Below are positions 3,356 to 30,651 of a stretch of DNA of 39,644 nt, one piece after another. The translations under genes were made by a program, and so were the position numbers. Below the pieces are notes generated by a model that saw only the letters and a program-made list of their open reading frames with translations, did not search any database and was not told the DNA's origin. The stretch's first letter is position 1, and each line of letters starts with the position of its first letter. Source of the stretch: Acidimicrobiia bacterium (GTDB lineage: Bacteria > Actinomycetota > Acidimicrobiia > IMCC26256 > BP-133); contig JBOGFE010000644.1 of NCBI GenBank assembly GCA_050741935.1, forward strand, positions 1 through 39,644. The letters run 5' to 3'.

Positions 3356-4923
3356 GCCAGCGGGACGGCTTGGGCGGCCTGGACGTAGGCGTGCTCGTGG
3401 GCCAGCAGCCCGGCCAGGGCGGCGACGCCGGCCACCGGCCCGAGCAGCGGGGCGAGCAGCCCGGCGGCGGTGAGGGCGACGCCCGTCCAGAAGAATCCCG
3501 AGTAGCGGCCCCGGGTCATCTCCCAGGCGGCCAGGTGGGCGTGGGCGGTGGGATGGGCGAGGGTGAGCTCGCCGGCGACCAGCAGCAGATGGGCGGCGCA
3601 GGCCGCGGCGAGCACCCAGATCAACACGTCGCGGGCTCCGGAGTCGAGCACGGCGTCGGTCACCAGCAGCGCACCGGCGCCGGCCAGGGCGGCCTGGATG
3701 GCCATGTGGGGCGGCAGCAGCGGGCTCTGCCACAGGTCACGGGCCTTCGACTGGGCGAAGAGGTAGGCGGTGTAGACGGCGGTCATGACGGCGAGCGGGA
3801 CCCCCGGGAAGGCGGCCACCCGCATGAGGCCGGCGTTCCCGACCGCGGCGGCCAGGAAGTGGACACCGAGCACGGCCCCGTAGCCGCTGATGATGAACCC
3901 GCCCCGCACCAGCCAGGAGCGCCACTGGGGCTTGGTGAAGATGTAGAGGCACCGGGTCGGGTGCTCGAGGTCCCAGATGAGCAGGCCGCCGGTGGCGGCC
4001 AGGAAGAAGGCGGCGAGGCCGGGGGCGGCCCAGCGCACCAGGGGATCCGTCCACTCGACCGTCCCGGCGAAGGCGAGGAGGATCGCCAGGAGCCAGGCCC
4101 CGGCGGCGATGCCCTTGGTCCAGGTGTAGAGGCTGACCCGCCAGTCCCACGGCGCCCGGTGGGAGACGTCGTAGGCGACCAGGGCGGCCGCCTGCGAGTT
4201 GGCCGCGCCTCCCCGGGCCGGGTGCCCGGAGCCGACCTGCTGGTGGCCGCCGGGCTGCTCGCTCCACATGTACAGGCCGCCGTCGGGCCGGCGGGCGGCG
4301 AGCGGGTCGAGGGTGGCCTGGCTGGCGCCCCGGTAGAACACCTTGGGGCGGGTTTCCTTCTCGGGCCGCCGCACCGCCACCGGCTGGCGCCCCACGATCT
4401 GCGCCACCCTGGAGGTGGGGTCGTTGAGGTCGCCCACCAGGATCGCCTGGGTGGGACACACCGTCACGCAGGCGGGCTCCAGCCCGATGTCGAGGCGGTG
4501 GGCGCAGAAGTTGCACTTCTCGGCGGCGTGGTCCTCGGGGTTGATGAAGATGGCGTCGTAGGGACAGGCCGCCATGCATGCCTTGCAGCCGATGCAGCGG
4601 CGCTTGTCGAAGTCGACGATGCCGTCGCCCCGCTGGTACATGGCGGTGGTGGGGCAGGCGGCCACGCAGGGGGCGTCCTCGCACTGGTTGCAGCGGGTGA
4701 CCTGGAAGGCCCGGCGCGAGTTGGGGAACGTGCCGGTCTCGACGTACTTCACGTACGTGCGGGTCACCCCGAGGGGCACGGCGTTCTCCGACTTGCACGC
4801 CGTGGTGCAGGCATGACAACCGATGCAGGCGCTCTGGTCGAGCACCTTGATCCAGTTGGCGCGGCCCTCGGTGGGGGCGAGGGTCTGGCAGCGGGGAACG
4901 GCCGGCGCCGCCACCGTCGTCAC
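3352..4923 (-). CDS. Fused 4Fe-4S ferredoxin subunit (PsrB/DmsB/NrfC-like, four Cys clusters) + NrfD/PsrC-like polytopic membrane anchor
   Basis: ORF 3352..5550(-). The Cys clusters are CIGCHACTTAC, CNQCEDAPCVAAC, CIGCKACMAAC and CNFCAHR...CVTVC, followed by multiple hydrophobic helices. There is no in-frame ATG near the domain start. In-frame GTG codons at 4923 and 4914 are the first plausible starts, so the start is uncertain by tens of nt. Confidence 0.8.
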   Translation of the reverse strand: MTTVAAPAVPRCQTLAPTEGRANWIKVLDQSACIGCHACTTACKSENAVPLGVTRTYVKYVETGTFPNSRRAFQVTRCNQCEDAPCVAACPTTAMYQRGDGIVDFDKRRCIGCKACMAACPYDAIFINPEDHAAEKCNFCAHRLDIGLEPACVTVCPTQAILVGDLNDPTSRVAQIVGRQPVAVRRPEKETRPKVFYRGASQATLDPLAARRPDGGLYMWSEQPGGHQQVGSGHPARGGAANSQAAALVAYDVSHRAPWDWRVSLYTWTKGIAAGAWLLAILLAFAGTVEWTDPLVRWAAPGLAAFFLAATGGLLIWDLEHPTRCLYIFTKPQWRSWLVRGGFIISGYGAVLGVHFLAAAVGNAGLMRVAAFPGVPLAVMTAVYTAYLFAQSKARDLWQSPLLPPHMAIQAALAGAGALLVTDAVLDSGARDVLIWVLAAACAAHLLLVAGELTLAHPTAHAHLAAWEMTRGRYSGFFWTGVALTAAGLLAPLLGPVAGVAALAGLLAHEHAYVQAAQAVPLA

Positions 4924-10098: not shown

Positions 10099-10431
10099 GT
10101 GGCGACCGAGAACTACTCACGACACCTGATCCGGATCGCCCGCCGACGCGCCGGACTGACGCAAGAGGCCCTCGCCCGGCGGGCCGCCACCAGCCAGGCC
10201 GCCATCTCGGCCTACGAATCTGGGCGTCGCTCCCCCTCGGTCGCCACCCTCACCCGCATCCTCGAAGCCGCCGGCTTCGAACTCCGGATGCGACTCAGCG
10301 AACCGGACACCCACGACACCACCCGGCGCGTCGCCGAACGACTGCTGCCACCTGACCAACTCGACGCCTTCACCAGAGCCGAGCAGCAACGCACCAGGCG
10401 GGCCCGACGTTCCAAAGCCGTCGGTGCCTGA
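10099..10431 (+). CDS. XRE-family helix-turn-helix protein (putative antitoxin/regulator of the downstream NTase)
   Basis: LIRIARRRAGLTQEALARRAATSQAAISAYESGRRSPSVATLTRILEAAGFEL is a classic HTH_XRE pattern. GTG start. The gene overlaps the next gene by 8 nt. Confidence 0.85.
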   Translation: MATENYSRHLIRIARRRAGLTQEALARRAATSQAAISAYESGRRSPSVATLTRILEAAGFELRMRLSEPDTHDTTRRVAERLLPPDQLDAFTRAEQQRTRRARRSKAVGA

Positions 10432-10918
10432 TCTCGACATCCCCGCCGTCGTCCGCACCCTCAACGCCCACGGGGTCCGCTACGTCGTCATCGGCGGCGT
10501 CGCCGCCCTCGTGCACAACCTCCCGGTCCCGGCCACCGTCGACATCGACATCACTCCCTCCCGAGACACGCAGAATCTCGAACGTCTCGCCGACGCCTTC
10601 GACACCCTCGAAGCGGGGCTGCTGACCGCCGAGGAGCCGGGAACGTGGTTTCCCCGGCACCCGGTCGAGAACTGGGCCCGGTACGACACTCTCCACCTCA
10701 TGACCAGGCACGGCCCCGTCGACATCGTCTTCGCCCCCGACGGCGCTCCCCGAGGCTTCGACGACCTCCAAACCTCGGCCGACGAGCACCCCGTCCAAGC
10801 CGACGACGCTCCTGCGCTCGTCATCTCGGTGACCACCTGGGAGCGACTCAAACAGGCATCCGGCCGCGCCAAGGATCTCGAACACCTCGACCGCTTCTAC
10901 GAAGGGTCCGAGCAGTGA
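10424..10918 (+). CDS. Minimal Pol-beta-superfamily nucleotidyltransferase-like protein (putative toxin/effector partner of the HTH)
   Basis: VVIGGVAALVHNLPVPATVDIDITPS fits the hG[GS]-x9-13-Dh[DE]h NTase motif. The C-terminal part carries a GRxKDL motif. It is a paralogue of 29689..30231. Confidence 0.7.
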   Translation: MPDLDIPAVVRTLNAHGVRYVVIGGVAALVHNLPVPATVDIDITPSRDTQNLERLADAFDTLEAGLLTAEEPGTWFPRHPVENWARYDTLHLMTRHGPVDIVFAPDGAPRGFDDLQTSADEHPVQADDAPALVISVTTWERLKQASGRAKDLEHLDRFYEGSEQ

Positions 10919-11101
10919 ATGGGGGTCCTCGACGAGTCCTCAGAAGGCCGAGGATCGCCGAGAAACGTTGAGGCGGGTCAGGCCACGAGGTGCGCCGGGC
11001 GCCGGCCGTTCGGATTGGTGCCGATCACGCCGCCGCTCACCATCAGGCCTCGGCGATCTCGGCTGGTTCCCAGCGGCTCTCCAGCAGGCCGGCAAAGTCA
11101 A

Positions 11102-11133
11102 GGGGCGGGGCCCGCTCGCGCCGGCCCCGCCCC
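11102..11133. terminator. GC-rich hairpin between convergent genes (possible bidirectional terminator)
   Basis: GGGGCGGGGCC (11102-11112) pairs perfectly with GGCCCCGCCCC (11123-11133), with a 10-nt loop. It lies between the stop at 10918 (+) and the stop at 11151 (-). There is no clean U-tract. Confidence 0.5.
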
Positions 11134-11150
11134 GGAAATCGTTGCCGTGA

Positions 11151-11639
11151 CTAGAAGCCGAGGCCCAGCAGTCCGCCCGAGCCGCCGCCCGTCACACCAC
11201 CGAGAATCCCCGTCACCGGAGCCAACAGACCGCCCGACCCGCCGCCCGTCACCCCACCGAGCAGGCCGGTCACCGGAGCGAGCAGATCACCCGAGCCGCC
11301 GCCCGTCACACCACCGAGCAGGCCCGTCACCGGAGCCAGCAGATCACCCGACCCACCGCCCGCAACACCACCGACGATTCCCGTCACCGGAGCCAGCAGA
11401 TCACCCGAGCCCCCGCCCGCAACACCACCGAGAATCCCCGTGACCGGAGCCAGCAGATCACCCGACCCGCCACCGGTGAGGCCGCCCAGGAGGTCGCCGG
11501 ACTCGGCCGGGGTGGAGGTCGGTGCGGGCGCCGTGGAAGTGGACCTGGCCGCCAGGGCCGGGACGGCCAGCGCCGCCCCGCAGAGAAGACCGACGACGGG
11601 AACAGCCATCAAGAGGGCTTGCTTCTGGATCTTTTGCAC
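11151..11639 (-). CDS. Small secreted Gly/Leu-rich protein built from tandem 20-aa repeats (GGGSGDLLAPVTGxLGGVxG)
   Basis: GTG start at 11639 follows GGAGGAG. The signal peptide is MQKIQKQALLMAVPVVGLLCGAALAVPALAA. Then come about 5 full repeats plus partial repeats, ending GGLLGLGF. Confidence 0.8.
   Translation of the reverse strand: MQKIQKQALLMAVPVVGLLCGAALAVPALAARSTSTAPAPTSTPAESGDLLGGLTGGGSGDLLAPVTGILGGVAGGGSGDLLAPVTGIVGGVAGGGSGDLLAPVTGLLGGVTGGGSGDLLAPVTGLLGGVTGGGSGGLLAPVTGILGGVTGGGSGGLLGLGF
11154..11504 (-). repeat. Tandem 60-nt coding repeat, about 5.5 copies
   Basis: The string gtcaccggagc(c/g)a(g/a)cag recurs about every 60 nt. The repeat is in frame with the secreted-protein gene. 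Confidence 0.85.
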
Positions 11640-11933
11640 GTTGCTCCTCCGCTACAGATCTCGAGAGCCTGTTGCTCTGCCGCAGGTGTCGGGTCGCGGG
11701 GGGAGGGGGTTGAGCAGCCCTGGACAAACTTGGGCTCGAACGCCAGCCTTCGGGCCCGGATGACTAGTTCCGTCGGACTGGAGCTTCCTGACCAGGCAAC
11801 GCCCTTATCGGTGCGGGGCGCATCGTGCGAACCGTCCGGAAGGGAGCACAAGGCGCCGAGAGGATTGGGCGTGCGCGTCGGGAGGCCCCCGAACGGGCCA
11901 GTCAGAGCCTCCACCCGGCACTAGTGCGCCCCG

Positions 11934-11959
11934 TCGCCCGCCAAGTCCGGGGCGGGCGA
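11934..11959 (-). terminator. Hairpin immediately downstream of the CHAP gene stop
   Basis: TCGCCCGCC (11934-11942) pairs with GGCGGGCGA (11951-11959), with an 8-nt loop. There is no U-tract. Confidence 0.3.
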
Positions 11960-11971
11960 TGGGACTCGCGG

Positions 11972-13162: not shown

Positions 13163-13182
13163 TCCCACACCGATGACCGTTC

Positions 13183-13217
13183 GAGAGGGTCCGGGTGGGG
13201 TCCACTCGGGCCCTCTC
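13183..13217 (+). promoter_or_regulatory. Strong stem-loop between the small ORF and the first large gene (possible attenuator, stabiliser or processing site)
   Basis: GAGAGGGTCC (13183-13192) pairs with GGGCCCTCTC (13208-13217): 10 bp with one G-U pair. The loop can form a further GTGG/CCAC helix. Confidence 0.35.
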
Positions 13218-13238
13218 ACCGGAGAAAACAAGGTGATC

Positions 13239-14624
13239 ATGGCTTCTTGGGGTGGCTTGCTCGCCCAGGTGATGGCCGACGCGGAGACATCTGATGCAGG
13301 CCGCCTGGCCTCGGGCGTCAGGGCATTGCGAGCGGCCGTCGCCCAGGCTCCCGGCAACGACATCGACGAACTGGCCGGCGTCGCCGCCATGCACGAGTTG
13401 CCGTGGGTGCGGATCGCCGTGCTGCAGGCCCTCGTGCAACGGGCCCCCGACCACGACGACGTGCGCCGGGCCACGGCCTGGCTGACGCACGACTACGAGG
13501 ACTTCGTGGCCTTCGCCGCCATCGACCTGGCCGGGCGTCTCGGGCTGCGAGAGGTCCTGGCCGACCTCCTCGTGATCGTCGGGCGCGCCAGTGAGCGCAT
13601 GCGCACCGTGGCCGGGAAGCCGGTCGGGATCGGACACGCGCTGGTGCTCCGGACCATCGCCGCCCTGGCGGGGAGCTCACACCCCGAAGACCTCGCCCGC
13701 CTGGAGCAGGACCTGTTCAGCGCCGGATTCGACGACACGGTGTTTCCGCCTCAGCCCGGGCGGGACGCCTTCGATGCCGGTGACCACACGCACGGCGGGA
13801 TGGTCTCCGTCACCGGAGGGCGGGTCCGGGGTGGGCCACCACCCGCCTTCGACCCCGACACGCTGCTCTTCGACTGGAACGACCCGGAGGTGCCTGCTCC
13901 CTGCGGGGACTTCTGGATCGACGTCGTCCCGGTCAGCAACGCCGAATACGACCGCTTCACCCGCAGCGCCGCTGCCCGGGACCACCGCTTCTGCCACCCG
14001 GCCGAGCCCGAGGGCAAGCTGCACGTGCGCAACACGCTGCTCGACGCCTCCGCCGGAGCCGAGCACCCGGTGACGGGCGTCGACTGGTTCGACGCCTATG
14101 CCTACGCCCGGGCCCGGGGCAAGCGCCTCCCCTCCGAGACCGAGTGGCAACGGGCGGGCCAGGGCGACGACGAGCGGGCCTACCCCTGGGGAGATGTCTT
14201 CGACGGCTCCCGCACGCACTGCCGCCCGGCCCCGGAGCGGGCCGGCTGGGACGGGGTTGCGGCGTGGCGCGACGACCTGCTGGCGCTGGCCGACAGGCTG
14301 CCGGCGGTGACGACCCGGGCCCGGGGGATCCCGGGTGGCGAAAGCCCCTACGGCGTCCGGGACCTGTCGGGCAATGTCTGGGAGTGGACGGCCTCCTCAT
14401 TCGAGGGGCCGGCCTTCAGCCCCGTCGATACCGGCCGGGACGCCATCGACGTCATCTACGACGAGCGTTCCTACGCCGTCATCAAAGGGGGCACCTGGAC
14501 GTCGCTGCCCGAGCAGGTCTCCGTCGCCTTCCGGGGCCGCGACCTCGCCCTCGATCGCCACTTCGAGATCGGCTTCCGCGCCGCCTGCAGCTGTCCACTC
14601 GACCAGGACGGCGCGCAACCGTGA
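13239..14624 (+). CDS. HEAT-like repeat N-domain + SUMF1/FGE-sulfatase (EgtB/PvdO-type) domain protein
   Basis: The C-terminal half reads HPVTGVDWFDAYAYARARGKRLPSETEWQRAG...YPWGD...SPYGVRDLSGNVWEWTASSF...IKGGTW...FRGRD...IGFRAA. I chose the start at ATG 13239 (upstream GGAGAAAACAAGGTG). The alternative ATG at 13173 lacks an SD and would place the hairpin inside the coding region. Confidence 0.8.
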   Translation: MASWGGLLAQVMADAETSDAGRLASGVRALRAAVAQAPGNDIDELAGVAAMHELPWVRIAVLQALVQRAPDHDDVRRATAWLTHDYEDFVAFAAIDLAGRLGLREVLADLLVIVGRASERMRTVAGKPVGIGHALVLRTIAALAGSSHPEDLARLEQDLFSAGFDDTVFPPQPGRDAFDAGDHTHGGMVSVTGGRVRGGPPPAFDPDTLLFDWNDPEVPAPCGDFWIDVVPVSNAEYDRFTRSAAARDHRFCHPAEPEGKLHVRNTLLDASAGAEHPVTGVDWFDAYAYARARGKRLPSETEWQRAGQGDDERAYPWGDVFDGSRTHCRPAPERAGWDGVAAWRDDLLALADRLPAVTTRARGIPGGESPYGVRDLSGNVWEWTASSFEGPAFSPVDTGRDAIDVIYDERSYAVIKGGTWTSLPEQVSVAFRGRDLALDRHFEIGFRAACSCPLDQDGAQP

Positions 14625-16285
14625 CCGTCGACACCGCCCCGGCCACCCTGGTCATCGACGTGTTCGACGACCCGATGACCCTCGATCCCCACAAGGCCTT
14701 CGACACCTCCTCCCGGCACCCGGTGCTCAACATCTACGACGGCCTGCTCGGGCTCGACGAGGACCGGCGACCGTATCCGGTGCTCGCCGCCGACCTGCCC
14801 GTGGCAACAGGGCGCGGCGGCACCTGGGAGGTCGCCATTCCGATCCGCGGCGGCATCCGGTTCCACGACCGGACCCCCCTCACGGTGGATGACGTCGTCT
14901 ACTCGCTGCGACGCATGGCCATCACCGCCGACGGGCCCGCCTCCCTCTGGGCCGACGCTCTCCTCGGGGCCCCCCTGACCCGCCTGTCGGAGGCGGCGGC
15001 GGCGGAGATGGCAGGGCGGATCACGGCCGGCAACGACGGCGTGCTCCTGCGCCTCCCCGCCCCCTACCGGCCGATCGACCTGCTCCTCGTCCAGTGGTCC
15101 CTGGTGGTGAGCCGGCCGTGGTGCGCAGAGCGGGGAGAGTGGGACGGCGACCTCGCCACGGTGGTGCACTTTCTCCGCCGGGGCCGGACTCCACTCGACG
15201 AGCAGGCCAACGGAACGGGGCCCTATGCCCTCCACGGGTGGGACCGCACGCGGCGGGTGCTCACGTTCCGGACGTCAGAGGCCCGTACTTCCGCCGCCCG
15301 CGGCGGCCCCGCCGCTACGGTCGTGCTGCGCTCCGTCGACGATCGGAGAGAGAGGGAACGTGAGCTGCTTGCCGGCGAATGCGACTTCTCGGTGTGCCAG
15401 CCCGAGTCGCGCCGGCGCCTCGGGCGCCTGGAGGGCATCGTGCTCGAGAAGCTGCCCGAGGAGTGGAGCATCAACCCCCTCGGCTTCATCACCCAGCGCC
15501 TCGATCCCCGCTGCGCCGCCGTCGGTTCCGGAGTCTTCGGGCCGGGAGGCCTCCCTCCGGCGGCCTTCGGCGACGTGCATCTCCGACGGATGCTCAGCCT
15601 GTGCTTCGACCACGCCGCCTACGTCGACGACGTACTCGACGGGGAGGCGCTCACCCACTCCCCACCGTTCCCGGCCGGGGCGATCCGGGGACTCGACGTG
15701 GGCCGGGGCATCTTCGACCCGGACCTGGCCCGGGCCGAATGGTCGTCAGCCTGGGACGGCCATGCGGCGAGCGCCGGTTGCCGCATCGTCATCACCACCC
15801 ATGCCGCCAACATCTCGCGGGTCCGGGCGGCCGAATACCTGGCCCGGGGGCTGCGGGCGGTGAGCGACGGCATCGAGGTGGAGATCGACGCCGTGGACTT
15901 CAACACCTTGAACGAGCGGCTCTATGCGGGGCAGTGCCCGGTGGCCTTCGTGGGCTGGGCGAGTGACTTCCTCCACCCCTTCGCCTTCGCCTCCGCGCTC
16001 CTCGATCCCCGGGCCCCCCTGCCCGCCGCCCTCGGCATCGACGACGCCGTCCTCGCCGACCTTGTCCTGCGGGCCCGTCAGGCCGAGCCCGAGGAGGAGG
16101 CGGCGGTCTACCGGCGGATGGCCGAGTACGCCGCCGACCAGGCGCTCTTCCTCGCGCCTCCGGGCAAGATCAGCTACATGACCTACGCCGACCGCTGGCA
16201 GGGCGTCCGGTTGAAGCACCACGTGCCCAACGTGCTCGACTTCGCCAGCTTCCGGGCCCGGGTCGAGGCGGAGCGCCCGGAGTGA
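14621..16285 (+). CDS. Solute-binding-protein family 5 (peptide/nickel SBP) homologue without a signal peptide or lipobox
   Basis: VTVDTAPATLVIDVFDDPMTLDPHKAFDTSSRHPVLNIYDGLLGLDEDRRPYPVLAADLP...IRFHDRTPLTVDDVVYSLRR is the typical SBP_bac_5 N-terminal pattern. GTG 14621 forms a GTGA overlap with the upstream stop. The longer ORF-track start (14144) is out-of-context R/P-rich sequence that overlaps the FGE gene. Confidence 0.75.
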   Translation: MTVDTAPATLVIDVFDDPMTLDPHKAFDTSSRHPVLNIYDGLLGLDEDRRPYPVLAADLPVATGRGGTWEVAIPIRGGIRFHDRTPLTVDDVVYSLRRMAITADGPASLWADALLGAPLTRLSEAAAAEMAGRITAGNDGVLLRLPAPYRPIDLLLVQWSLVVSRPWCAERGEWDGDLATVVHFLRRGRTPLDEQANGTGPYALHGWDRTRRVLTFRTSEARTSAARGGPAATVVLRSVDDRRERERELLAGECDFSVCQPESRRRLGRLEGIVLEKLPEEWSINPLGFITQRLDPRCAAVGSGVFGPGGLPPAAFGDVHLRRMLSLCFDHAAYVDDVLDGEALTHSPPFPAGAIRGLDVGRGIFDPDLARAEWSSAWDGHAASAGCRIVITTHAANISRVRAAEYLARGLRAVSDGIEVEIDAVDFNTLNERLYAGQCPVAFVGWASDFLHPFAFASALLDPRAPLPAALGIDDAVLADLVLRARQAEPEEEAAVYRRMAEYAADQALFLAPPGKISYMTYADRWQGVRLKHHVPNVLDFASFRARVEAERPE

Positions 16286-17550
16286 AGCTCACCGGCGCCT
16301 ACCGGGACGTCCTGCGCCGGCCGCTCTTCCGTCGCTACTTCGCCGGGGAGGGGATCTCCAGCGTCGGCGATGCGATGAGCGAGGTCACGATCGTCGTGCT
16401 CGCCCTCGAACTCGGCACCGGCTCCAATCGGGCGATGGCCGTGGCACTGGCCAGCGCCGCCTACCTGCTGCCCGGCATCGTGACCGGAGCGGCTGTCGGG
16501 CGCCGCCTGGGAGCCGTAAGCCCCCGCACCCTCTTGATCATCGACAATGCCTGGCGGGGCGGATGCCTCGGTCTGGCGGCGGTGTTGACCACGACAGACG
16601 CCATCGGGCTCGGCGGCTACGTCGCCCTGCTGGCGCTCGCCTCCCTGACCCGTCCCCTGGGCGCCGGCGGCTCCCGGACGATCGTCGTCGATCTCGTCGA
16701 CGAGGACGACCTCTTCGCCGCCAACTCGCTGGTCAACACCATCGTTCAGGCCGCCGTGATGTTGGGGCCGGCGGTGGCGGGTGTGCTGGCGGCGGTAATC
16801 GGCCCGGGCCCGGTCCTGGCCATCGACGCCACCACCTTCCTCCTCTTCGTCGCCGCCCTGCTTTCCATCCCGGCGGCGACCATCCCGCCCCGGGAGGTGG
16901 CCGACAGCAGGGTGGGTTCGGCCGCTCTTCCGGCGGCACGGCGCTGGCGGTGGGCCGGCTGGCTGGGCAGCTACCGCACCGTGGCCGGCCTGTTCCTCCT
17001 CACCGGGATCTTCCACGCCCTGTACGGGCCGTTCGTGGTCAGCCTGCCGCTGCTCGTCCAGGAGCGGGCCGGGGCCCTGGCCCCGGCGGCGGCGCTGGGG
17101 CTGCTCTGGTCGGCCTTCGGGGTGGGCGCCGTGCTGGGCGGGCTCGCCGGTGGCAGCCGGGCCTCGCTGGCCTCTCCCCGATCGGCGGCGCTCATCGTCG
17201 CCGGCTGGGGAGCAGCCACGGTGGCCGTCGGACTGCCCGCCCACCTGGCCGTGGCCGGGGCGGCCATGTTCGCCGGCGGTGCCGTCTACGGCCCCTACAT
17301 CGCCATCGTGAGCACCGTGATGCAACAGCACCTGCCGCCACACCGCCTGGCGGAGGCCAGCGCCTACTACCACTCGGTCACCGGGGTCGTCGGGCCGCTG
17401 GGAACGCTCGCCGGCGGAGTCGTCGTCGCCGGCCTCGGCCCCTCCCCGAGCCTGTTCGCCGCCGGCGGGCTCCTGATCGGCTTCGGACTCGCCGCCGCCG
17501 CCCGCCTGGGCACCGCGTCCACGCCGGCGACCCCGGGCGTGCCCGCATGA
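16282..17550 (+). CDS. MFS transporter (MFS_3/EntS-like), exporter candidate 1
   Basis: About 12 hydrophobic segments. N-terminus: MKLTGAYRDVLRRPLFRRYFAGEGISSVGDAM. There is a GTGA overlap with the upstream gene. Confidence 0.85.
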   Translation: MKLTGAYRDVLRRPLFRRYFAGEGISSVGDAMSEVTIVVLALELGTGSNRAMAVALASAAYLLPGIVTGAAVGRRLGAVSPRTLLIIDNAWRGGCLGLAAVLTTTDAIGLGGYVALLALASLTRPLGAGGSRTIVVDLVDEDDLFAANSLVNTIVQAAVMLGPAVAGVLAAVIGPGPVLAIDATTFLLFVAALLSIPAATIPPREVADSRVGSAALPAARRWRWAGWLGSYRTVAGLFLLTGIFHALYGPFVVSLPLLVQERAGALAPAAALGLLWSAFGVGAVLGGLAGGSRASLASPRSAALIVAGWGAATVAVGLPAHLAVAGAAMFAGGAVYGPYIAIVSTVMQQHLPPHRLAEASAYYHSVTGVVGPLGTLAGGVVVAGLGPSPSLFAAGGLLIGFGLAAAARLGTASTPATPGVPA

Positions 17551-18485
17551 CGGGCCGGGGCGCCATGACCGAGCCCTGGTACGGCGACGTGATCCGCCCC
17601 GCCGGCGTCTCGATGGCCGACGACCTGGCCGGGGCCGCCCCGCTAGCGGTCGCCCGTCACCTCCCGCAGGACGAGGCGACGACCGTCGACGAGCGGTACC
17701 ACGACGACGAGGCCGGCATCTACGAGTCCTACTGCCGGGTCCCCCGTGTCGCCGCGGCCGAGGGTTGGATCCTGCCCTGGATCCGGCGCCGTACGCCGGT
17801 GGGGGTCACCGTGGACCTGGGCTGCGGCACCGGGCGGGTGGCCAAGGCATTGGCCGGCCCTCCGGCCCGCCACGTCATCGCCGTCGACCGGTCCTCGGGG
17901 ATGCTGGCGGTGGCGCGCCACCAGGTGCCGTCATCGGGCGTGCTCCTGCTGCGGGCCGACGCCCGGGCCCTGCCCCTCCATGACCAGTCGGTGGACTCCG
18001 TGGTCTGCTCCGGTGTCCTCCACCACATGGCGACCTGGCCCGACGCGCTGCGCGAGGCGGCCCGGATCCTCCGCCCGGGAGGGCGCCTCATCGTGCGCGA
18101 ACCCAACGCCGCTTATCCCGCCTGGCTGTTCGCCCCGGTGGAAGAGGCAATGGACCGCCTCGCCCGCCGGCGCCCCCGGCGAACGCAGGACGGCCCGGGA
18201 GCGGCGACAACGGCCCCGCAGCTGTCGCCGGTGGAACAGCCCATCAGCCTCCCGGCACTGGTGAGCGCGGCCGAGGGGGCCGGGTTCCGCCTGGCCGAGG
18301 CCGGGTCGGCGATGCTGCTGGGCTCACTCGGCCTCCCTGACGCCATCCCCGCCCAGCAGCTCTATTTCCGGCCCGCCAACGTGATCGACCGCCTGGCGCT
18401 CCGCCACCTCCGTCCACCTCTGGGCGCCCTGCTCCTGGCTGTCTTCACCGCAGAAGCCGCACTCAGTCCCGCTCCGCCTTCGTAG
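17547..18485 (+). CDS. Class I SAM-dependent methyltransferase
   Basis: Motif I is VTVDLGCGTGRVAKAL; DRSSGMLAVAR, VCSGVLHHM and LRPGGRLIV follow. ATG 17547 forms an ATGA overlap with the MFS stop. Confidence 0.9.
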   Translation: MTGRGAMTEPWYGDVIRPAGVSMADDLAGAAPLAVARHLPQDEATTVDERYHDDEAGIYESYCRVPRVAAAEGWILPWIRRRTPVGVTVDLGCGTGRVAKALAGPPARHVIAVDRSSGMLAVARHQVPSSGVLLLRADARALPLHDQSVDSVVCSGVLHHMATWPDALREAARILRPGGRLIVREPNAAYPAWLFAPVEEAMDRLARRRPRRTQDGPGAATTAPQLSPVEQPISLPALVSAAEGAGFRLAEAGSAMLLGSLGLPDAIPAQQLYFRPANVIDRLALRHLRPPLGALLLAVFTAEAALSPAPPS

Positions 18486-18496
18486 CCCGGCCGAAT

Positions 18497-18514
18497 TGAG
18501 TGGTCGGCCACTCA
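18497..18514. promoter_or_regulatory. Palindrome TGAGTGGTCGGCCACTCA followed by TGAC (candidate operator, copy 2)
   Basis: The 7-bp arms TGAGTGG/CCACTCA are identical to copy 1, with the same 4-nt spacing and the same 3' TGAC. It lies 12 nt after the methyltransferase stop and 83 nt upstream of small ORF 18597. Confidence 0.45.
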
Positions 18515-18596
18515 TGACGGGACCCGGCCGCATCCGCATCCTGGAAGCAGCAGCCGGGTGACTGGGACGGGCCGCGTCGAGAGGGGAGGTGGAACC

Positions 18597-18761
18597 ATGG
18601 AGAACGGGACAGAAGCGCGTACAGCCGACGAGATCGGCGAGCTCCTCGACGAGATCGGGATGGAGTTCGCCCTGCACACGCATCATCCGCTGACGCACCT
18701 CGAGCTGGGTGACGCTGCACCCGACGCCATCAAGCAGCGGGCAGCCTGCTCGGCCTGGTGA
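18597..18761 (+). CDS. 54-aa small ORF, candidate RiPP precursor peptide: MENGTEARTADEIGELLDEIGMEFALHTHHPLTHLELGDAAPDAIKQRAACSAW
   Basis: ATG 18597 lies 7 nt after GGAGG (18585-18589). It sits alone in the only sizeable intergenic gaps of the cluster (18486-18596 and 18762-18849). The N-terminal half is acidic and helix-like, as a leader would be. The C-terminal half is His-rich and ends Cys-Ser-Ala-Trp. Confidence 0.5.
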   Translation: MENGTEARTADEIGELLDEIGMEFALHTHHPLTHLELGDAAPDAIKQRAACSAW

Positions 18762-18849
18762 CGGTAGAGCGCCGCTAGCAGGCGCATGTAACGAGCTGAA
18801 GCCACCGGCGGCCCGTCCCCACCAGGCCCAATCACCGCGGGAGCGAGAA

Positions 18850-19545
18850 ATGCAGGCAATGCGAGTCGATATCGGAAGGCAGGACGCCGGGTACGGCTAC
18901 GTCCTCGCCGTGGCCATGCGTCAACTGCTGAGAGACATTCCCCCTGAGCTGGCCTCGGCGCCCGTCCTCGTCGGGCAGGTGGCGTCGACCCCGGTTCCCC
19001 GCGTGTACGCCAACCGCACCCGACATGCACCGCTCTTCGTGTTCGACCCCCGGGACGAGCACGTCGAGGCCCAACGGGAGATGCTCTCCGCCGGGCGCCC
19101 GGTGCGCCTCCTCCAGTGCGACGTCACGGATCTGCCCGGGGAGGTCGACGACCTGGCCTGTGTCGTCAATCCCTTCGGGCTCCAGGAGTTCCCTGACCGC
19201 GTCATCGAGTACGGCACCGAAGTCCGCCGGCGCGTCCGAACCGCGGGCTTCCTCCAGACCCTCGACTGGGGCCTCACCGGCTATCCCGACGATCTCCGCC
19301 ACCTGCCCGGCATCCGGGACGAGATCGCCTTCTCCCTGGCCACCCAGTTGAGGCCCTTCGGAGCCGAGGAGGGCTGGAGCCTGTATCGGGAGGTCGCCTA
19401 CGACTTCCACTTCGAACACGATGCCGACCAGGTGGCCGCCATCCTGGTCGCCGACAAGGCGGCGGCCTTCCGCCAGGCCGTGGTCGCCGGCCGCCACATC
19501 CCCATCAGCTCCTCCATCATCTACCGGCTCTACCGTGCTGCTTGA
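18850..19545 (+). CDS. Methyltransferase-fold-like protein with a degenerate SAM motif I
   Basis: VLVGQVASTP sits where VLDLGCGTG is expected. It is followed by FDPRDEHVE, LLQCDVTDLPGEVDDLACVVNPFGLQEF, which resembles the Methyltransf_11 layout. ATG 18850 follows GGGAGCGAG. Confidence 0.5.
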   Translation: MQAMRVDIGRQDAGYGYVLAVAMRQLLRDIPPELASAPVLVGQVASTPVPRVYANRTRHAPLFVFDPRDEHVEAQREMLSAGRPVRLLQCDVTDLPGEVDDLACVVNPFGLQEFPDRVIEYGTEVRRRVRTAGFLQTLDWGLTGYPDDLRHLPGIRDEIAFSLATQLRPFGAEEGWSLYREVAYDFHFEHDADQVAAILVADKAAAFRQAVVAGRHIPISSSIIYRLYRAA

Positions 19546-20404
19546 GTCCGCCGTCAGGCCGGATCGGCCGGTGGTCACCGCCCACCCGGCGGGCTCGGCC
19601 GGCATCGGCGTCGTGCTGCCGCACTCGTCGCGCTGGGAGACGGGGGCCACGCTGGCCGGAACCGGGCGCTTCGTCGACGACGTGGGCTACCGGTCGGTCT
19701 GGCTGCGGGACTGGCCGATCGGCGTCCGCAACAGCGTGTACCCGCTGGACACGGGCACCGGGCACGATCCCGTGGCCTACGCCTCGATCCTCCGGACCCT
19801 CCTGCCGCCGGAGGTGACCGTGGGCCTGGCCGTCCTGCGCCTCGACTACCGCGAGCCGGCCGTCACCGCCCGCAGCATCGTCTCGATGGCCTCGCTGGCC
19901 CGCGGACCCATGATCGTGGGCCTGGGCGGGGCGTCGAGCAACGACCCCACGGCCCAGGAAGAGACCGTGCGCACCTATCGCCGCGTGCGCGCCCTCCTCT
20001 CCTCCGCCGACCACGACTTCGTCGTCCCCGACGACTTCGTCTGCCCGCCCCTGTACCTCGCCAGTCGATCCGTGGCCACCTGGGAGGGGATCGGGTTCGA
20101 GGCGGAGGGTGTCCTCACCACCGAGGTGCATCCCCGCCGGCTGGAGGAGTCGTTGGCCCCCCTGCGCCGGCACCGACCCGGCCTTTCCGTCGGCCTCGAG
20201 TTCCTGGTGGAGCTCGACCGGGCCGATCCCGAACGGATGGTTCGACAGGGCCGGACGCTGATCGTGGGCCGCCGGCGAATCGGGCAGCTGGCCCGAGCCT
20301 GGTCCGACGCCGGTGTGCAGCACCTCCTCGTCCACATGGCCCCGGCGTCGAGCCGTGACGAGCACCTGGACCTGGTCGACGCCATCTCCGGGAGGCAGTC
20401 ATGA
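19535..20404 (+). CDS. Luciferase-like (LLM-class) flavin/F420-dependent oxidoreductase-like protein
   Basis: GIGVVLPHSS...TLAGTGRFVDDVGYRSVWLRDWP... resembles the LLM N-terminal beta-alpha pattern. The GTG start at 19535 is inferred (11-nt overlap with the upstream gene). The family call is moderate. Confidence 0.55.
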   Translation: MLLESAVRPDRPVVTAHPAGSAGIGVVLPHSSRWETGATLAGTGRFVDDVGYRSVWLRDWPIGVRNSVYPLDTGTGHDPVAYASILRTLLPPEVTVGLAVLRLDYREPAVTARSIVSMASLARGPMIVGLGGASSNDPTAQEETVRTYRRVRALLSSADHDFVVPDDFVCPPLYLASRSVATWEGIGFEAEGVLTTEVHPRRLEESLAPLRRHRPGLSVGLEFLVELDRADPERMVRQGRTLIVGRRRIGQLARAWSDAGVQHLLVHMAPASSRDEHLDLVDAISGRQS

Positions 20405-21345
20405 GCAACGAGATCATCGAGGCGTTCCTGGGCGACTCCCGAGAGTTCCTGGACACGACGTACGAGCGGCGGCCACTCATCAGATCCGTCCGCCACCTGG
20501 AAGCCGTGGCGCGGATCATCAGCCTGGAGATGGTCGACGAGCTCATCACCGGTCGCTGGCTCACCAGGCCGACGGCCCGGGTGGTGAGCAAGGGCCGGGG
20601 GCTGCCGGTCGAGGCCTACACCGACGTGCTGGACGACGGCACCCGCCTGGTCAACCCGGCGCTGGTACTCGAGCATCTGAAGAAGGGTGCCTCCTTCGTC
20701 CTCAACCAGGTCGAGCGCCACGTCAGGGCCGTGCATGACGTGTGCGCCGTGCTCGAGGACTACTTCACGGCACCGGTCAACGCCACCCTGTTCGTCACCG
20801 CGCCCGACAGCGCCGGGCTCCGGGCCCACTTCGACGGCCAGCACCTGTTCGTGCTGCAGGTCGGCGGCCTCAAGGAATGGTGCCTGTGGGAGCCTCCCCA
20901 CCCCGACCCGGCGGACTCACGGGTGGTCCCCGAAGACAGCCTCGGGGAGCCGCTCCTGCAGTTCGCCCTCGAGCCGGGAGACCTCCTCTACCTCCCGAGG
21001 GGTTATGTCCATCGCGCCCACACGACATCGATGTTCTCGGCCCATATCACCTTCCTCGTCGAACGGGTCACGTGGCAGGACGCCATCGTGGCCGAGTGCC
21101 GCCGGCTGCTCGACCGGCCCGAGTTCCGCGCCAGCCTCCCGCCCGGTTACGCCGTCGACCCCCCCGACTCCGACCGGCTCGACCTCCTGCAGTCCGCGGC
21201 GCGCCAGGCCCTCCTGACACTCGACGTGGCTGCCGCGCTCGAGCGCTCGGCCGACAACGAGTACTGGAAGCGCCCCATGTCCCCCCGAGGAGCGTTCCTC
21301 AACTGGATCGGGGCCGTTCACGACGACGCGCCGTACCCGTGTTGA
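20401..21345 (+). CDS. JmjC / cupin-4 (ribosomal-oxygenase-like) Fe(II)/2-oxoglutarate oxygenase
   Basis: LRAHFDGQHLFVLQVGGLKEWCLW provides the HxD; GDLLYLPRGYVHRAHT provides the distal His. There is an ATGA overlap with the upstream stop. Confidence 0.8.
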   Translation: MSNEIIEAFLGDSREFLDTTYERRPLIRSVRHLEAVARIISLEMVDELITGRWLTRPTARVVSKGRGLPVEAYTDVLDDGTRLVNPALVLEHLKKGASFVLNQVERHVRAVHDVCAVLEDYFTAPVNATLFVTAPDSAGLRAHFDGQHLFVLQVGGLKEWCLWEPPHPDPADSRVVPEDSLGEPLLQFALEPGDLLYLPRGYVHRAHTTSMFSAHITFLVERVTWQDAIVAECRRLLDRPEFRASLPPGYAVDPPDSDRLDLLQSAARQALLTLDVAAALERSADNEYWKRPMSPRGAFLNWIGAVHDDAPYPC

Positions 21346-22073
21346 ACGCCGATGAGGTGCGGGTCTACGAGCGGGGGGCGCGGGCGGGCCCGAAGCGGAC
21401 GGGCTGCGCCGGGACCACCACGTCGGTCCCGGGGCGGCGCCTGGAGGGGCGCGGACCGGGAATCGCGCTCGAGGCCCCGACGGCGCGCGACGGGGGGAAC
21501 GCCCTCCTGCACGCCCGCCGGAGCAGCCGGAACCTGTGGCACCCCCTCCACCTCGGCGTGCTGAGCGAGGTCCTGCACTGCGCCCTGGCTCCTCGCCGGG
21601 ACGGCGGCCGCCCGTACCCCACCAGCGGCGGCTGCGACGAGCTGCGCTTCCTCCTGCTGTGCCAGCGGGTCGTCCCGATGCCACCGGGGTGGTACTGGCT
21701 CACTCCCGACGTCAGCCGGTTGGTTCCCGCCGACCTGCGGGGCGGCCAGGACGTACTGGCCAAGGTCTCCACGTTCCTCGGGCTCGACCCCGAGCGCGCC
21801 CCTTCGGTGGTGATGCTCGCCTTCTGCGACTGGGAGACGCTCTCCAGCCGCTACGAGCACTGCACACTGCTCAGCGGCCTGTGGGACTGGGGCGCGGCGC
21901 TCCAGACGCTCTACCTGAGTGCCTGTGCCACCGGGACCCCGGCGTGCGCGGTTGCCGCCCTCATGCCCCGGACGCTCGCCCTCCATCTGGGGGTGGACTG
22001 CCGGGCCTTCGGACACGTCGGCACCTTCGCGCTCGGCGGCCCCCCGCCGGTCGGCAGGGACGCCTCCGCATGA
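21339..22073 (+). CDS. SagB-type (nitroreductase-fold, FMN) azoline dehydrogenase
   Basis: LLHARRSSRNLW...RRDGGRPYPTSGGCDELRFLLLCQRV...PGWYWLTP...HCTLLSGLWDWGAALQTLYLSACATG matches the SagB/ThcOx pattern. The start is uncertain: GTG 21339, TTG 21342 or GTG 21357. Confidence 0.8.
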   Translation: MLNADEVRVYERGARAGPKRTGCAGTTTSVPGRRLEGRGPGIALEAPTARDGGNALLHARRSSRNLWHPLHLGVLSEVLHCALAPRRDGGRPYPTSGGCDELRFLLLCQRVVPMPPGWYWLTPDVSRLVPADLRGGQDVLAKVSTFLGLDPERAPSVVMLAFCDWETLSSRYEHCTLLSGLWDWGAALQTLYLSACATGTPACAVAALMPRTLALHLGVDCRAFGHVGTFALGGPPPVGRDASA

Positions 22074-29692: not shown

Positions 29693-30231
29693 GCAGCGAC
29701 GCGGGTCCGCCTGTCCTCGATGCGCCCCGCATCCTCGAGGTCCTCAACCGTCATTGCGTCGACTACGTCATCATCGGTGCGTACGCCGCTCAGATGCACG
29801 GAGCGCCGATTCGAAAGACGGAGGACATCGACGTCACCCCTTCCCGGGGTCGAGACAACCTCCACCGCCTGTCCATGGCCCTGAGGGAGCTGGGGGCTCG
29901 GGTCCGCACCGTCGGGGTACCTGGAGGCCTGGTCTTCGATCACGACGGAACATCCCTCGGTCGATCCGCAATGTGGAACCTCACTTGTCCGTTCGGCGAC
30001 TTCGATCTCTCCTTCGAACCGTCGGGAACAGAGGGTTTCGCCGACCTGAACCGAGATGCAATGACCTTGGCCGTCGGCGGCGTTCCCGCCCGGGTTGCCA
30101 GCCTGGAGGACGTCATCCGTTCCAAACGGGCGGCGGGCAGACCCAAGGACCTCGCGGTGCTCCCGACGCTCATCGCCACCGCCCAGCGCCAGCGACAGGC
30201 CGGGGACGCCGTGGGGGAAGCCGATGCTTGA
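29689..30231 (+). CDS. Minimal nucleotidyltransferase-like protein, paralogue of 10424..10918
   Basis: YVIIGAYAAQMHGAPIRKTEDIDVTPSR carries the G-x-D-x-D NTase motif, and GRPKDL lies near the C-terminus. There is an ATGA overlap with the HTH gene. Confidence 0.7.
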   Translation: MSSDAGPPVLDAPRILEVLNRHCVDYVIIGAYAAQMHGAPIRKTEDIDVTPSRGRDNLHRLSMALRELGARVRTVGVPGGLVFDHDGTSLGRSAMWNLTCPFGDFDLSFEPSGTEGFADLNRDAMTLAVGGVPARVASLEDVIRSKRAAGRPKDLAVLPTLIATAQRQRQAGDAVGEADA

Positions 30232-30234
30232 GCG

Positions 30235-30651
30235 TCAGGCGGGCGAGGTGAGGTAGGCCTCGGTCAGCCAGCCGCGGATGTCGTCGTCGACGTCGGCCGG
30301 GGTGCGGAGGTTGGCGACGTGGAAGTAGCTGCCGTGGTAGCGCTGCACCTTCCTGACGATGGTGCGGTGGCGGACCGGGTGGGGCAGCGAGAACGACAGG
30401 GCCACCCACTGCTGCATGGGCCGCAGCTGGGCGAAGCTCTTGGACCGCTTGAGGAAGATGCCCACCGAGACCGGCTCGACGTGCACGGGGCCCACCGTCT
30501 CCAGGTGGCGCATCACGGCCTCGAAGATGGGCCGCTCGTGGGCCGGGCCGGTCGAGAAGTACTCCTCCAGCGACATGGCCGGGGCACACTCGTGGGCCTG
30601 GCGGGGTCGGGCGAACCGGCGGCCGCACTCCGGGCAGATGAACGCCGGCAC
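30235..30651 (-). CDS. Small protein with an N-terminal CPxC...HxC zinc-ribbon-like motif and a DUF5655-like body (tentative)
   Basis: MPAFICPECGRRFARPRQAHEC..., then IFLKRSKSFAQLRPMQQWVALSFSLP...HVANLRTPADVDDDIRGWLTEAYL. GTG start. The stop lies only 3 nt from the convergent NTase stop. Confidence 0.5.
   Translation of the reverse strand: MPAFICPECGRRFARPRQAHECAPAMSLEEYFSTGPAHERPIFEAVMRHLETVGPVHVEPVSVGIFLKRSKSFAQLRPMQQWVALSFSLPHPVRHRTIVRKVQRYHGSYFHVANLRTPADVDDDIRGWLTEAYLTSPA

Follow-up and report, generated by a model that had tools for sequence, protein, structure and literature searches.

The thiazole/oxazole-modified microcins (TOMMs), among them microcin B17, plantazolicin and goadsporin, and the systems of the heterocyclases TruD, LynD and MusD share an N-terminally extended YcaO protein of the SagD type with a Pro-rich C-terminus, a SagB-type flavin mononucleotide (FMN) dehydrogenase, a small precursor gene directly 5′ of this machinery whose product carries an acidic helical leader, and genes for an exporter and for putative immunity. 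A further point of reference is streptamidine from Streptomyces albidoflavus, whose minimal gene set (ami) consists of a precursor, an E1-like protein, a YcaO protein, a hydrolase and a flavin dehydrogenase (PMC8442711). Here, we analyzed a 39,644-nt stretch of DNA from an Acidimicrobiia metagenome-assembled genome (MAG; assembly GCA_050741935.1, contig JBOGFE010000644.1, positions 1 to 39,644), referred to as the window, in which all features listed for TOMMs are found around a 54-aa open reading frame (ORF) at positions 18597-18761. This ORF very probably codes for the precursor (“A”) peptide in an undescribed, YcaO/SagB-dependent family of peptides that are made by ribosomes and modified after translation (RiPPs), with an invariant His-His-Pro core. 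Unlike the variable, Cys/Ser/Thr-rich cores of TOMMs, the core described here is invariant and His-rich, with one to three heterocyclisable residues. The clusters further differ from TOMM clusters by a universal Xaa-Pro-type M24 peptidase, an orphan pair of a methyltransferase-fold protein and a luciferase-like (LLM) oxidoreductase, vicinal oxygen chelate (VOC) and AlkZ-like genes, and hidden Markov model scores below the curated family cut-offs. YcaO/SagB RiPP clusters are a known type; new here are the precursor family with its invariant HHP core, the module that goes with the Cys tail, and the association with resistance-type genes.

As the window has a GC content of ~72%, plain ORF lists are meaningless, spurious ORFs being abundant, and genes were picked by their codon-position GC instead. 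The small ORF, located like all cluster genes given below on the + strand, extends from the ATG at 18597 to the TGA at 18759-18761 and translates to MENGTEARTADEIGELLDEIGMEFALHTHHPLTHLELGDAAPDAIKQRAACSAW, with four Thr, four His, one Cys and one Ser among its 54 residues. A Shine-Dalgarno sequence (GGAGG, 18585-18589) lies 7 nt 5′ of the ATG, and GC contents of 0.71/0.45/0.80 at the three codon positions display the coding pattern of a ~72% GC genome. An earlier note on this DNA had pointed at the ORF as a candidate precursor gene with a well-placed GGAGG and non-coding gaps on both sides in an otherwise overlap-packed operon. Its coordinates, translation and residue counts are all as claimed, and the two gaps are the only sizeable ones: 111 nt from the methyltransferase stop at 18485 on the 5′ side, and 88 or 97 nt on the 3′ side, depending on whether the next gene starts at ATG 18850 or ATG 18859. 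All other junctions of the 15-kb operon (13173-27924) overlap or measure at most 12 nt. No second small ORF with a coding-type signature was identified in any gap of the window cluster, and no promoter, terminator or attenuator signals were found in the two flanking gaps (fold z-score -0.37). A degenerate DNA pattern of the core matches the window once (18666-18704) against 0.00 matches expected. In the NCBI annotation of the Acidimicrobiia MAG the peptide is the hypothetical protein ACRDYV_08675.

Nine close homologues of the peptide, at 52-79% identity, were identified, and a profile search enlarged the family to 37 members. When 1.84 billion representatives were scanned exhaustively with HMMER, 27 representatives were returned, all of them small ORFs; 11 new, more diverged members were added in this way, for a total of ~48 homologues, all small and unannotated. 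They derive from the Acidimicrobiia MAG, from Kribbella sp. DT2 and from many unassigned metagenome contigs. Within these searches the family is small and closed: the exhaustive profile search returned this family only and connected it neither to AmiA nor to another known precursor family. The core DNA pattern matches all fetched loci, yet no contig in a metagenome contig collection, and we therefore conclude that this collection lacks such contigs. A YcaO-based scan of metagenomes yielded distant YcaO proteins only, none accompanied by the peptide.

Alignments of the family reveal a common anatomy, with a variable N-terminus, an acidic ELLDEIG-x-x-F segment, an x-[T/S/C]-H-H-P-L-[T/S]-[H/Y]-L-E core, a variable linker and an R-x-x-C tail. 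In the window peptide, residues 1-26 (18597-18674) comprise the variable N-terminus followed by E-L-L-D-E-I-G-M-E-F-A-L; within the motif L-[LM]-D-x-x-G, positions L16, D18 and G21 are invariant or nearly so, and by analogy to the leaders of TOMM and cyanobactin precursors this region would act as leader and recognition region. The core block H27-T-H-H-P-L-T-H-L-E36 (18675-18704), delimited by alignments and codon analysis, contains H29-H30-P31, invariant in all ~48 members, and a nearly invariant E36. Position 28 is Thr, Ser or Cys in most members, and Gln or Glu in forms that lack the tail; position 33 is Thr or Ser in all members but one (Ala in P0056). Position 34 is His, Tyr or Phe, and position 32 varies between Leu, Met, Gly and Ala. 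At least one of positions 28 and 33 is Thr, Ser or Cys in every member, and in most of them Cys51 is added to this. This Cys (codon 18747-18749) belongs to the R48-x-x-C51 motif of the variable C-terminal tail (18705-18758), ~15 residues past the core, of which Arg and Cys are kept in 34/37 members. A tail-less subfamily (QHHPLSYLEG), which includes the Kribbella sp. DT2 peptide, is devoid of the Cys.

The division into an acidic leader and a His-rich core made in the earlier note is roughly right, in that a conserved, helix-type acidic ELLDEIG-x-x-F segment precedes the His-rich block. Its suggestion that the HTHH and CSAW segments should be conserved holds for the former, with HHP present in all ~48 members. 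For CSAW it holds only with respect to the Cys (34/37) and an Arg three residues before it, and the Cys is wholly missing in the tail-less subfamily. The expectation of few heterocycles is consistent with a core that offers only two Ser/Thr/Cys positions, besides Cys51 in the tail.

Pairwise comparison of the HHPLxxxE block over 11 loci counts 219 synonymous versus 36 non-synonymous codon differences, and the invariant residues use every synonymous codon across these loci, with four codons for Pro31 and four, including TTG, for Leu32. Neighboring enzymes have diverged to 30-56% identity while the peptide core stays invariant. The codon pattern indicates that the peptide is under strong purifying selection at the protein level.

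The peptide gene is located directly 5′ of the same enzyme set in the window and in 11 further clusters. The resulting 12 clusters comprise the window, L001-L003, L008, L032-L036, L038 and the contig of P0030; DNA is available for 11 of them, the P0030 contig being represented by a gene table only. YcaO, SagB and M24 genes are present in all full clusters (YcaO in 12/12). In 24 loci with more distant YcaO proteins the peptide is absent, confining it to one YcaO clade. The proposal of the earlier note that the ORF is a precursor gene by its position next to the YcaO/SagB machinery is thus borne out by a position kept in 11 other clusters and by purifying selection.

Some accessory genes vary with the peptide. 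The pair of methyltransferase-fold protein and LLM oxidoreductase was found in 9/9 Cys-tail clusters with DNA versus 0/2 tail-less ones (L008, L032), and the P0030 contig contains genes matching the pair in size and position. Enzymes of the HFCD (Cys-decarboxylase) family act on C-terminal Cys residues of peptides. An HFCD flavoprotein (PF02441) is encoded in 2/2 clusters whose precursor ends in Cys, namely L001 (8476-9081, precursor ending ...VDC) and L034 (15928-16512, ...TQC), versus 0/9 others; the rule is drawn from these two loci, the terminal-Cys precursors P0059 and P0060 being outside the count. JmjC genes were found in 4/12 clusters, and VOC genes in 8/11 clusters with DNA and on the P0030 contig. 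Features of the peptide hence track specific enzymes, which argues for the peptide being a substrate rather than a bystander, and these correlations predict which enzyme would act on which part of the peptide.

Outside the full clusters, an “orphan” precursor gene was observed beside a VOC gene with no YcaO gene nearby in L005 (6326-6823; also L006 and L007) and in L037 (1643-4169), the latter with an ABC transporter gene next to it and transposase genes around. Such precursor-VOC pairs, with or without the ABC transporter, resemble orphan toxin-immunity pairs; as the contigs are short, biosynthetic genes may lie at a distance.

The three universal enzymes define the putative core chemistry. 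The 675-aa YcaO protein (22070-24097) was assigned to the SagD type via PF02624 (E 5.7e-43) and TIGR03604 (E 5e-53), and its best PDB matches are the fused cyanobactin heterocyclases MusD, TruD and LynD. Its Pro-rich C-terminus contains P671-x-P673-H-A, invariant in 4/4 orthologues, a feature typical of azoline-forming YcaO proteins (PMC8442711). An N-terminal domain of ~280 aa with an invariant GP...CPTC..LRL block occurs in 11 clusters, and TIGR03882, a TOMM leader-binding model, matches weakly (E 0.006), at the same place in 4/4 orthologues. The SagB-family FMN dehydrogenase (21339-22073) matches TIGR03605 (E 1.9e-11) and, weakly, PF00881; it keeps the motifs RRSxR and P[TA]SGG (PTSGG in the window) and the invariant Tyr of [R/K]Y, as do 10 orthologues. 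The M24 metallopeptidase (24090-25196) retains all five metal-ligand motifs (D/D/H/E/E) and is far closer to Xaa-Pro dipeptidases and aminopeptidases (prolidase/aminopeptidase P type; 9e-37 to 1pv9) than to methionine aminopeptidases (~1e-8). The Xaa-Pro type of this universal enzyme fits the invariant His-Pro bond of the peptide.

Three further proteins are candidates for tailoring. The gene directly 3′ of the precursor gene (18850-19545, alternative start 18859), restricted to Cys-tail clusters, encodes an orphan protein of 228-231 aa without match in Pfam or NCBIfam and with only 18 homologues among 5.8 billion proteins. Its AlphaFold2 (AF2) model (pLDDT 94.5) is similar to BioC, RlmA and RebM-type methyltransferases in Foldseek (TM about 0.6) and predicts a class-I S-adenosylmethionine (SAM)-methyltransferase fold. 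An invariant NPFGLQ motif follows directly after strand 4 and would sit where N-methyltransferases carry (D/N)PP(Y/F). The LLM oxidoreductase (19535-20404), possibly F420- or flavin-dependent, is always paired with this protein. A JmjC_2 Fe(II)/2-oxoglutarate oxygenase (20401-21345; Pfam E 5e-21), which we consider accessory, keeps the HxD...H triad; among solved structures it comes closest to NO66 and MINA53, two histidyl hydroxylases of ribosomal proteins (3e-22), with the Arg hydroxylase YcfD at 1e-3.

From these enzyme families, a product with one to three azoles, hydroxylated His and methylation may be expected. In the pathway that we propose, the N-terminal domain of YcaO would bind the leader, and the YcaO domain would use ATP to cyclodehydrate Thr28 and/or Thr33, possibly also Cys51, to azolines that the SagB flavoprotein could oxidize to azoles via FMN. 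The NO66/MINA53-like JmjC protein may hydroxylate the His-rich core at one residue, with a His as the most plausible site, and the methyltransferase-fold protein and LLM oxidoreductase may process the Cys tail, with HFCD acting instead where the Cys is terminal. During leader trimming, the Xaa-Pro M24 peptidase would cut the invariant His-Pro bond or a bond adjoining it. A major facilitator superfamily (MFS) pump (26653-27924), a probable exporter with orthologues in six other clusters, would export the product, and the small VOC protein, joined by the AlkZ-like glycosylase where present, would protect the producer. That the core is so unusually invariant speaks for a small product whose molecular target or ligand is fixed (a metal or DNA, for instance) and against a hypervariable bacteriocin; core invariance over large enzyme divergence resembles cofactor- or metallophore-type RiPPs more than such bacteriocins.

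Several observations weigh against the precursor assignment and the proposed chemistry. Both its translation and its modification are read from sequence alone. The core is very poor in Cys, Ser and Thr for an azole system, no heterocyclisable position is universal (28 is Gln or Glu in tail-less forms, 33 is Ala in P0056), and linear azole peptides do not typically combine an invariant core with variable flanks. Model scores stay below the curated cut-offs, with 180 versus 219 bits for TIGR03604 and 44 versus 78 bits for TIGR03605. An E1-like or RiPP recognition element (RRE) nature of the YcaO N-terminal domain is putative: a profile of 11 sequences found no match in the PDB, and AF2 on a single sequence gave a pLDDT of 37. 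Orphan precursor-VOC pairs exist without YcaO (L005-7, L037), and the correlations between enzymes and peptide features, though suggestive, come from few and phylogenetically related loci and are no statistical proof.

Comparison with streptamidine offers an alternative chemistry, in which the precursor would receive an N-terminal six-membered amidine, as in streptamidine or klebsazolicin, instead of stable azoles. Here, the Xaa-Pro peptidase would cleave His30-Pro31 to expose Pro-Leu-Thr, YcaO would activate the carbonyl of the second residue, and the dehydrogenase would be cryptic like AmiE. The precursor, the N-extended YcaO protein (its extension putatively E1-like), the hydrolase and the flavin dehydrogenase mirror the minimal ami set, although it is the presence of hydrolase and dehydrogenase as core partners that was compared, not homology to AmiC and AmiE. 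Streptamidine precursors also have a short, central, His-flanked and Cys/Ser/Thr-poor core (HLSATH, with X-Leu-Ser), for the most part lack an annotation and escape precursor predictors, and are suspected of a metal-related function (PMC8442711), features that apply to both systems. Pro31-Leu32-[Thr/Ser]33 is invariant or nearly so, the M24 peptidase is of the Xaa-Pro type, and the lack of Thr33 in P0056 finds a parallel in motif-B ami peptides without heterocyclisable residues (PMC8442711). However, precursors of the two systems are unrelated in sequence: AmiA-like peptides are absent from the exhaustive profile search, and here the core is preceded by varying residues (FAL, VVL, FVM, MTS...) rather than by a conserved “ALV” motif. 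The ami YcaO is standalone and accompanied by a separate AmiB, whereas YcaO carries a ~280-aa N-terminal extension here. Fec-type transporters are found there in place of MFS, VOC and AlkZ-like proteins, and the Cys tail and its enzymes are missing. Moreover, a Pro N-terminus would require an unprecedented tertiary amidine, with a cut between His and Pro the invariant His29 and His30 would be lost, and position 32 varies (L/M/G/A). Amidine formation therefore appears unlikely to us, and azole formation is the chemistry we prefer.

Distant YcaO loci were also inspected for a link to streptamidine. No convincing ALV-type small ORFs were found, with one weak candidate in L014, an Anaerolineaceae MAG: a small ORF (3469-3891) 5′ of a distant YcaO gene ends in ...ACNHNHALVHNPFAWSEPKTDVKSDK and contains an ALV-His motif recalling streptamidine-type precursors.

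The peptide might also be a small functional protein, metal-binding, regulatory or a partner of VOC, that travels with the cluster without being a substrate of its enzymes. An invariant center between variable ends is in line with a small functional protein, H-x-H-H...H...E...C would bind metals, and the orphan peptide-VOC pairs lack YcaO (L005-7, L037). Orphan toxin-immunity pairs are common for bacteriocins, though, so that these orphans fit a precursor as well. The functional-protein explanation further leaves aside that the peptide gene keeps its place directly 5′ of YcaO/SagB in 12 clusters, that its variants track enzymes (the Cys tail with methyltransferase-fold protein and LLM oxidoreductase, the terminal Cys with HFCD) and that it is confined to one YcaO clade; we regard it as improbable.

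A third alternative draws on an upstream accessory operon of four genes (13173-18485), characterized by Pfam/NCBIfam and PDB comparison. It encodes a protein with an FGE-sulfatase domain (13173-14624; Pfam E 4e-44) and, by their Pfam matches, an SBP_bac_5 protein (14621-16285), an MFS transporter (16282-17550) and a class-I SAM methyltransferase (17547-18485). The earlier note had speculated that an EgtB-type FGE protein forms a His-Cys C-S crosslink, which in EgtB/OvoA fashion would join the HTHH block to Cys51. The FGE-sulfatase domain itself, partial matches of its C-terminal domain to the EgtB, SenA and OvoA models, and the conservation of Cys51 and of the His residues agree with this idea. 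Against it, the FGE gene occurs in 1/11 clusters, namely the window, and otherwise in the L009 remnant, which has no precursor. The protein reaches 79 bits versus a cut-off of 360 for EgtB and 28 versus 400 for OvoA, and its best PDB relatives are CalU17 (top) and FGE/pFGE, EgtB and OvsA following at 1e-9 to 5e-4. Pfam detects no DinB domain in it, the N-terminal ~200 residues look like helical (HEAT-like) repeats on inspection of the translation, and the peptide tail lacks the C-x-P-x-R FGE motif. An EgtB-type crosslink is accordingly very improbable, and the FGE protein is at most a lineage-specific accessory. A frame that is open by chance, or a regulatory spacer without coding function, has virtually no probability left as an explanation. 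In its favor, spurious ORFs abound in high-GC genomes, and no promoter or terminator was found in the flanking gaps; the synonymous-codon pattern already refutes it, and ~48 homologues, the Shine-Dalgarno sequence and a coding-type GC3 speak against it as well.

Other YcaO systems display partial parallels. The thioamitides thioviridamide and thioholgamide are made by YcaO clusters and contain a hydroxylated and methylated His and a C-terminal Cys processed by an HFCD flavoprotein. The JmjC protein, the methyltransferases and the co-occurrence of HFCD with terminal-Cys precursors (L001, L034) recall them, but SagB is present here, and the window lacks HFCD and has a precursor ending in ...CSAW. 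Pfam detected no TfuA domain in the window cluster proteins, and without this partner thioamidation is not expected. Bottromycin is characterized by few heterocycles, a C-terminal extension past the modified Cys, a dedicated metallo-aminopeptidase and methyltransferases, features with counterparts in the window system. It differs by the absence of an N-terminal leader and of SagB, by two standalone YcaO proteins and by radical-SAM methyltransferases. Clusters of the curacozole/YM-216391 group combine YcaO and azoles with an accessory JmjC-type Fe/2-oxoglutarate oxygenase that hydroxylates a precursor residue, and CzlI of curacozole shows that a JmjC enzyme can serve as peptide hydroxylase in such a cluster (PMC11575548). 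CzlI, however, hydroxylates a Phe ring and resembles YxbC, whereas the enzyme described here is nearest to the His beta-hydroxylases NO66 and MINA53, in a cluster with neither macrocyclase nor poly-azole core. In the searchable literature, neither the motif strings of the peptide nor the combination of YcaO, glyoxalase and histidine yielded a relevant paper. The locus would define a rare, unexplored YcaO RiPP family with the precursor in hand and a core unlike any described class. With it, RiPP biosynthesis would gain a family of orphan methyltransferase-fold enzymes, a JmjC protein akin to His hydroxylases and an Xaa-Pro peptidase that is universal in the clusters. Kribbella sp. DT2 is a genome-sequenced isolate with its minimal, tail-less version.

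Two genes downstream of the core enzymes bear on a possible function. The window encodes a small VOC protein of the glyoxalase/bleomycin-resistance superfamily (25209-25550), a candidate immunity or binding protein, and an AlkZ-like (HTH_42) DNA glycosylase (25475-26656, start probably near 25544; PF06224 E 3e-77). Small VOC proteins include drug-sequestering resistance proteins. The best PDB matches of the VOC protein are other small VOC proteins, all at weak scores (5ump, 5w27 and 5ujp at 3e-4; mitomycin-binding protein weaker still). A comparison with Sh ble gave a weak match of the N-terminal half only (E 2e-5 in L036; not significant in Kribbella), and these proteins are treated as generic small VOCs. 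Genotoxin clusters are enriched in AlkZ-like glycosylases that carry a (Q/H)-phi-Q motif (PMC9040887). At this position, N-G-Q is found in the window and in L003, and Q-A-Q in L009; the window protein keeps the second Gln, unlike the Q-phi-D of housekeeping YcaQ, and has Asn as first residue. The AlkZ-like gene occurs in the window, L003 and L036 (3/11 clusters) and in the L009 remnant, at differing positions relative to the cluster; VOC/AlkZ-like loci are located at 25209-26656 in the window, 8857-9986 in L003, 1731-2828 and 12462-12818 in L036, and 4457-5680 in L009. Their recurrence at differing cluster positions suggests a selected linkage, possibly for self-resistance to a DNA-directed product. 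No paper treating AlkZ together with YcaO was found in the literature searched.

The association with VOC and AlkZ-like genes is a hint at DNA-directed activity. A tentative and rather doubtful extension of it would make the product a small metallopeptide with His and azoles that acts on DNA, by damaging or by targeting it, and so a ribosomal equivalent of bleomycin-type chemistry. ATCUN denotes the amino-terminal motif NH2-X-X-His, which binds Cu(II) and Ni(II). Removal of the leader might leave an N-terminal H-x-H as an ATCUN-type Cu/Ni site, hydroxy-His and azoles would complete the parallel, and the drug-sequestering VOC protein and the AlkZ-like glycosylase would protect the producer. If true, self-resistance via a DNA glycosylase would be a first among RiPP families. 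Should the VOC and AlkZ-like proteins confer self-resistance, the product would be a ribosomal genotoxin, bearing on antibiotic and antitumor discovery and on resistance-guided genome mining.

Other loci and parts of the window provide minor observations. On the P0030 contig, YcaO is split into a gene for a 355-aa N-terminal domain and a gene for a 316-aa YcaO protein, and a 424-aa pentapeptide-repeat protein is encoded 2 kb 5′ of the precursor gene; gyrase-protecting immunity proteins, McbG among them, belong to the pentapeptide-repeat family. In Tengunoibacter tsumagoiensis, L009 (4457-12318) is a decayed relative of the cluster in which YcaO lacks the N-terminal domain and the M24 ORF ends before the GHG motif. 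Still intact in it are the genes for the FGE, MFS, methyltransferase and AlkZ-like proteins, which are similar to those of the window (1e-50 to 1e-89). A precursor gene was sought in this locus and none was found, in line with a decayed remnant with truncated M24; a repeat-rich stretch follows it at ~13300-14300. The upstream FGE, MFS and methyltransferase genes recur in this remnant only, apart from weaker methyltransferase matches in L001, L002, L008 and L032. The SBP_bac_5 protein (Opp/Nik-type solute-binding) has neither signal peptide nor lipobox, and no ABC permease genes are nearby; it seems to be a cytoplasmic protein of solute-binding fold specific to the window cluster.

Within the rest of the window, PADLOC returned no defence-system matches for the downstream unknown proteins. 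Two regions of more than 1 kb each, 10919-11971 and 29101-30358, contain no convincing gene call, the latter being the lowest-GC region of the window (0.66). At 10099-10918, a 110-aa XRE-type helix-turn-helix protein (PADLOC RmrA/HTH matches, 3e-9) overlaps the start of a 164-aa protein without family match, and the two may form a small pair with a regulatory or toxin-antitoxin-like role that has no relation to the RiPP operon.

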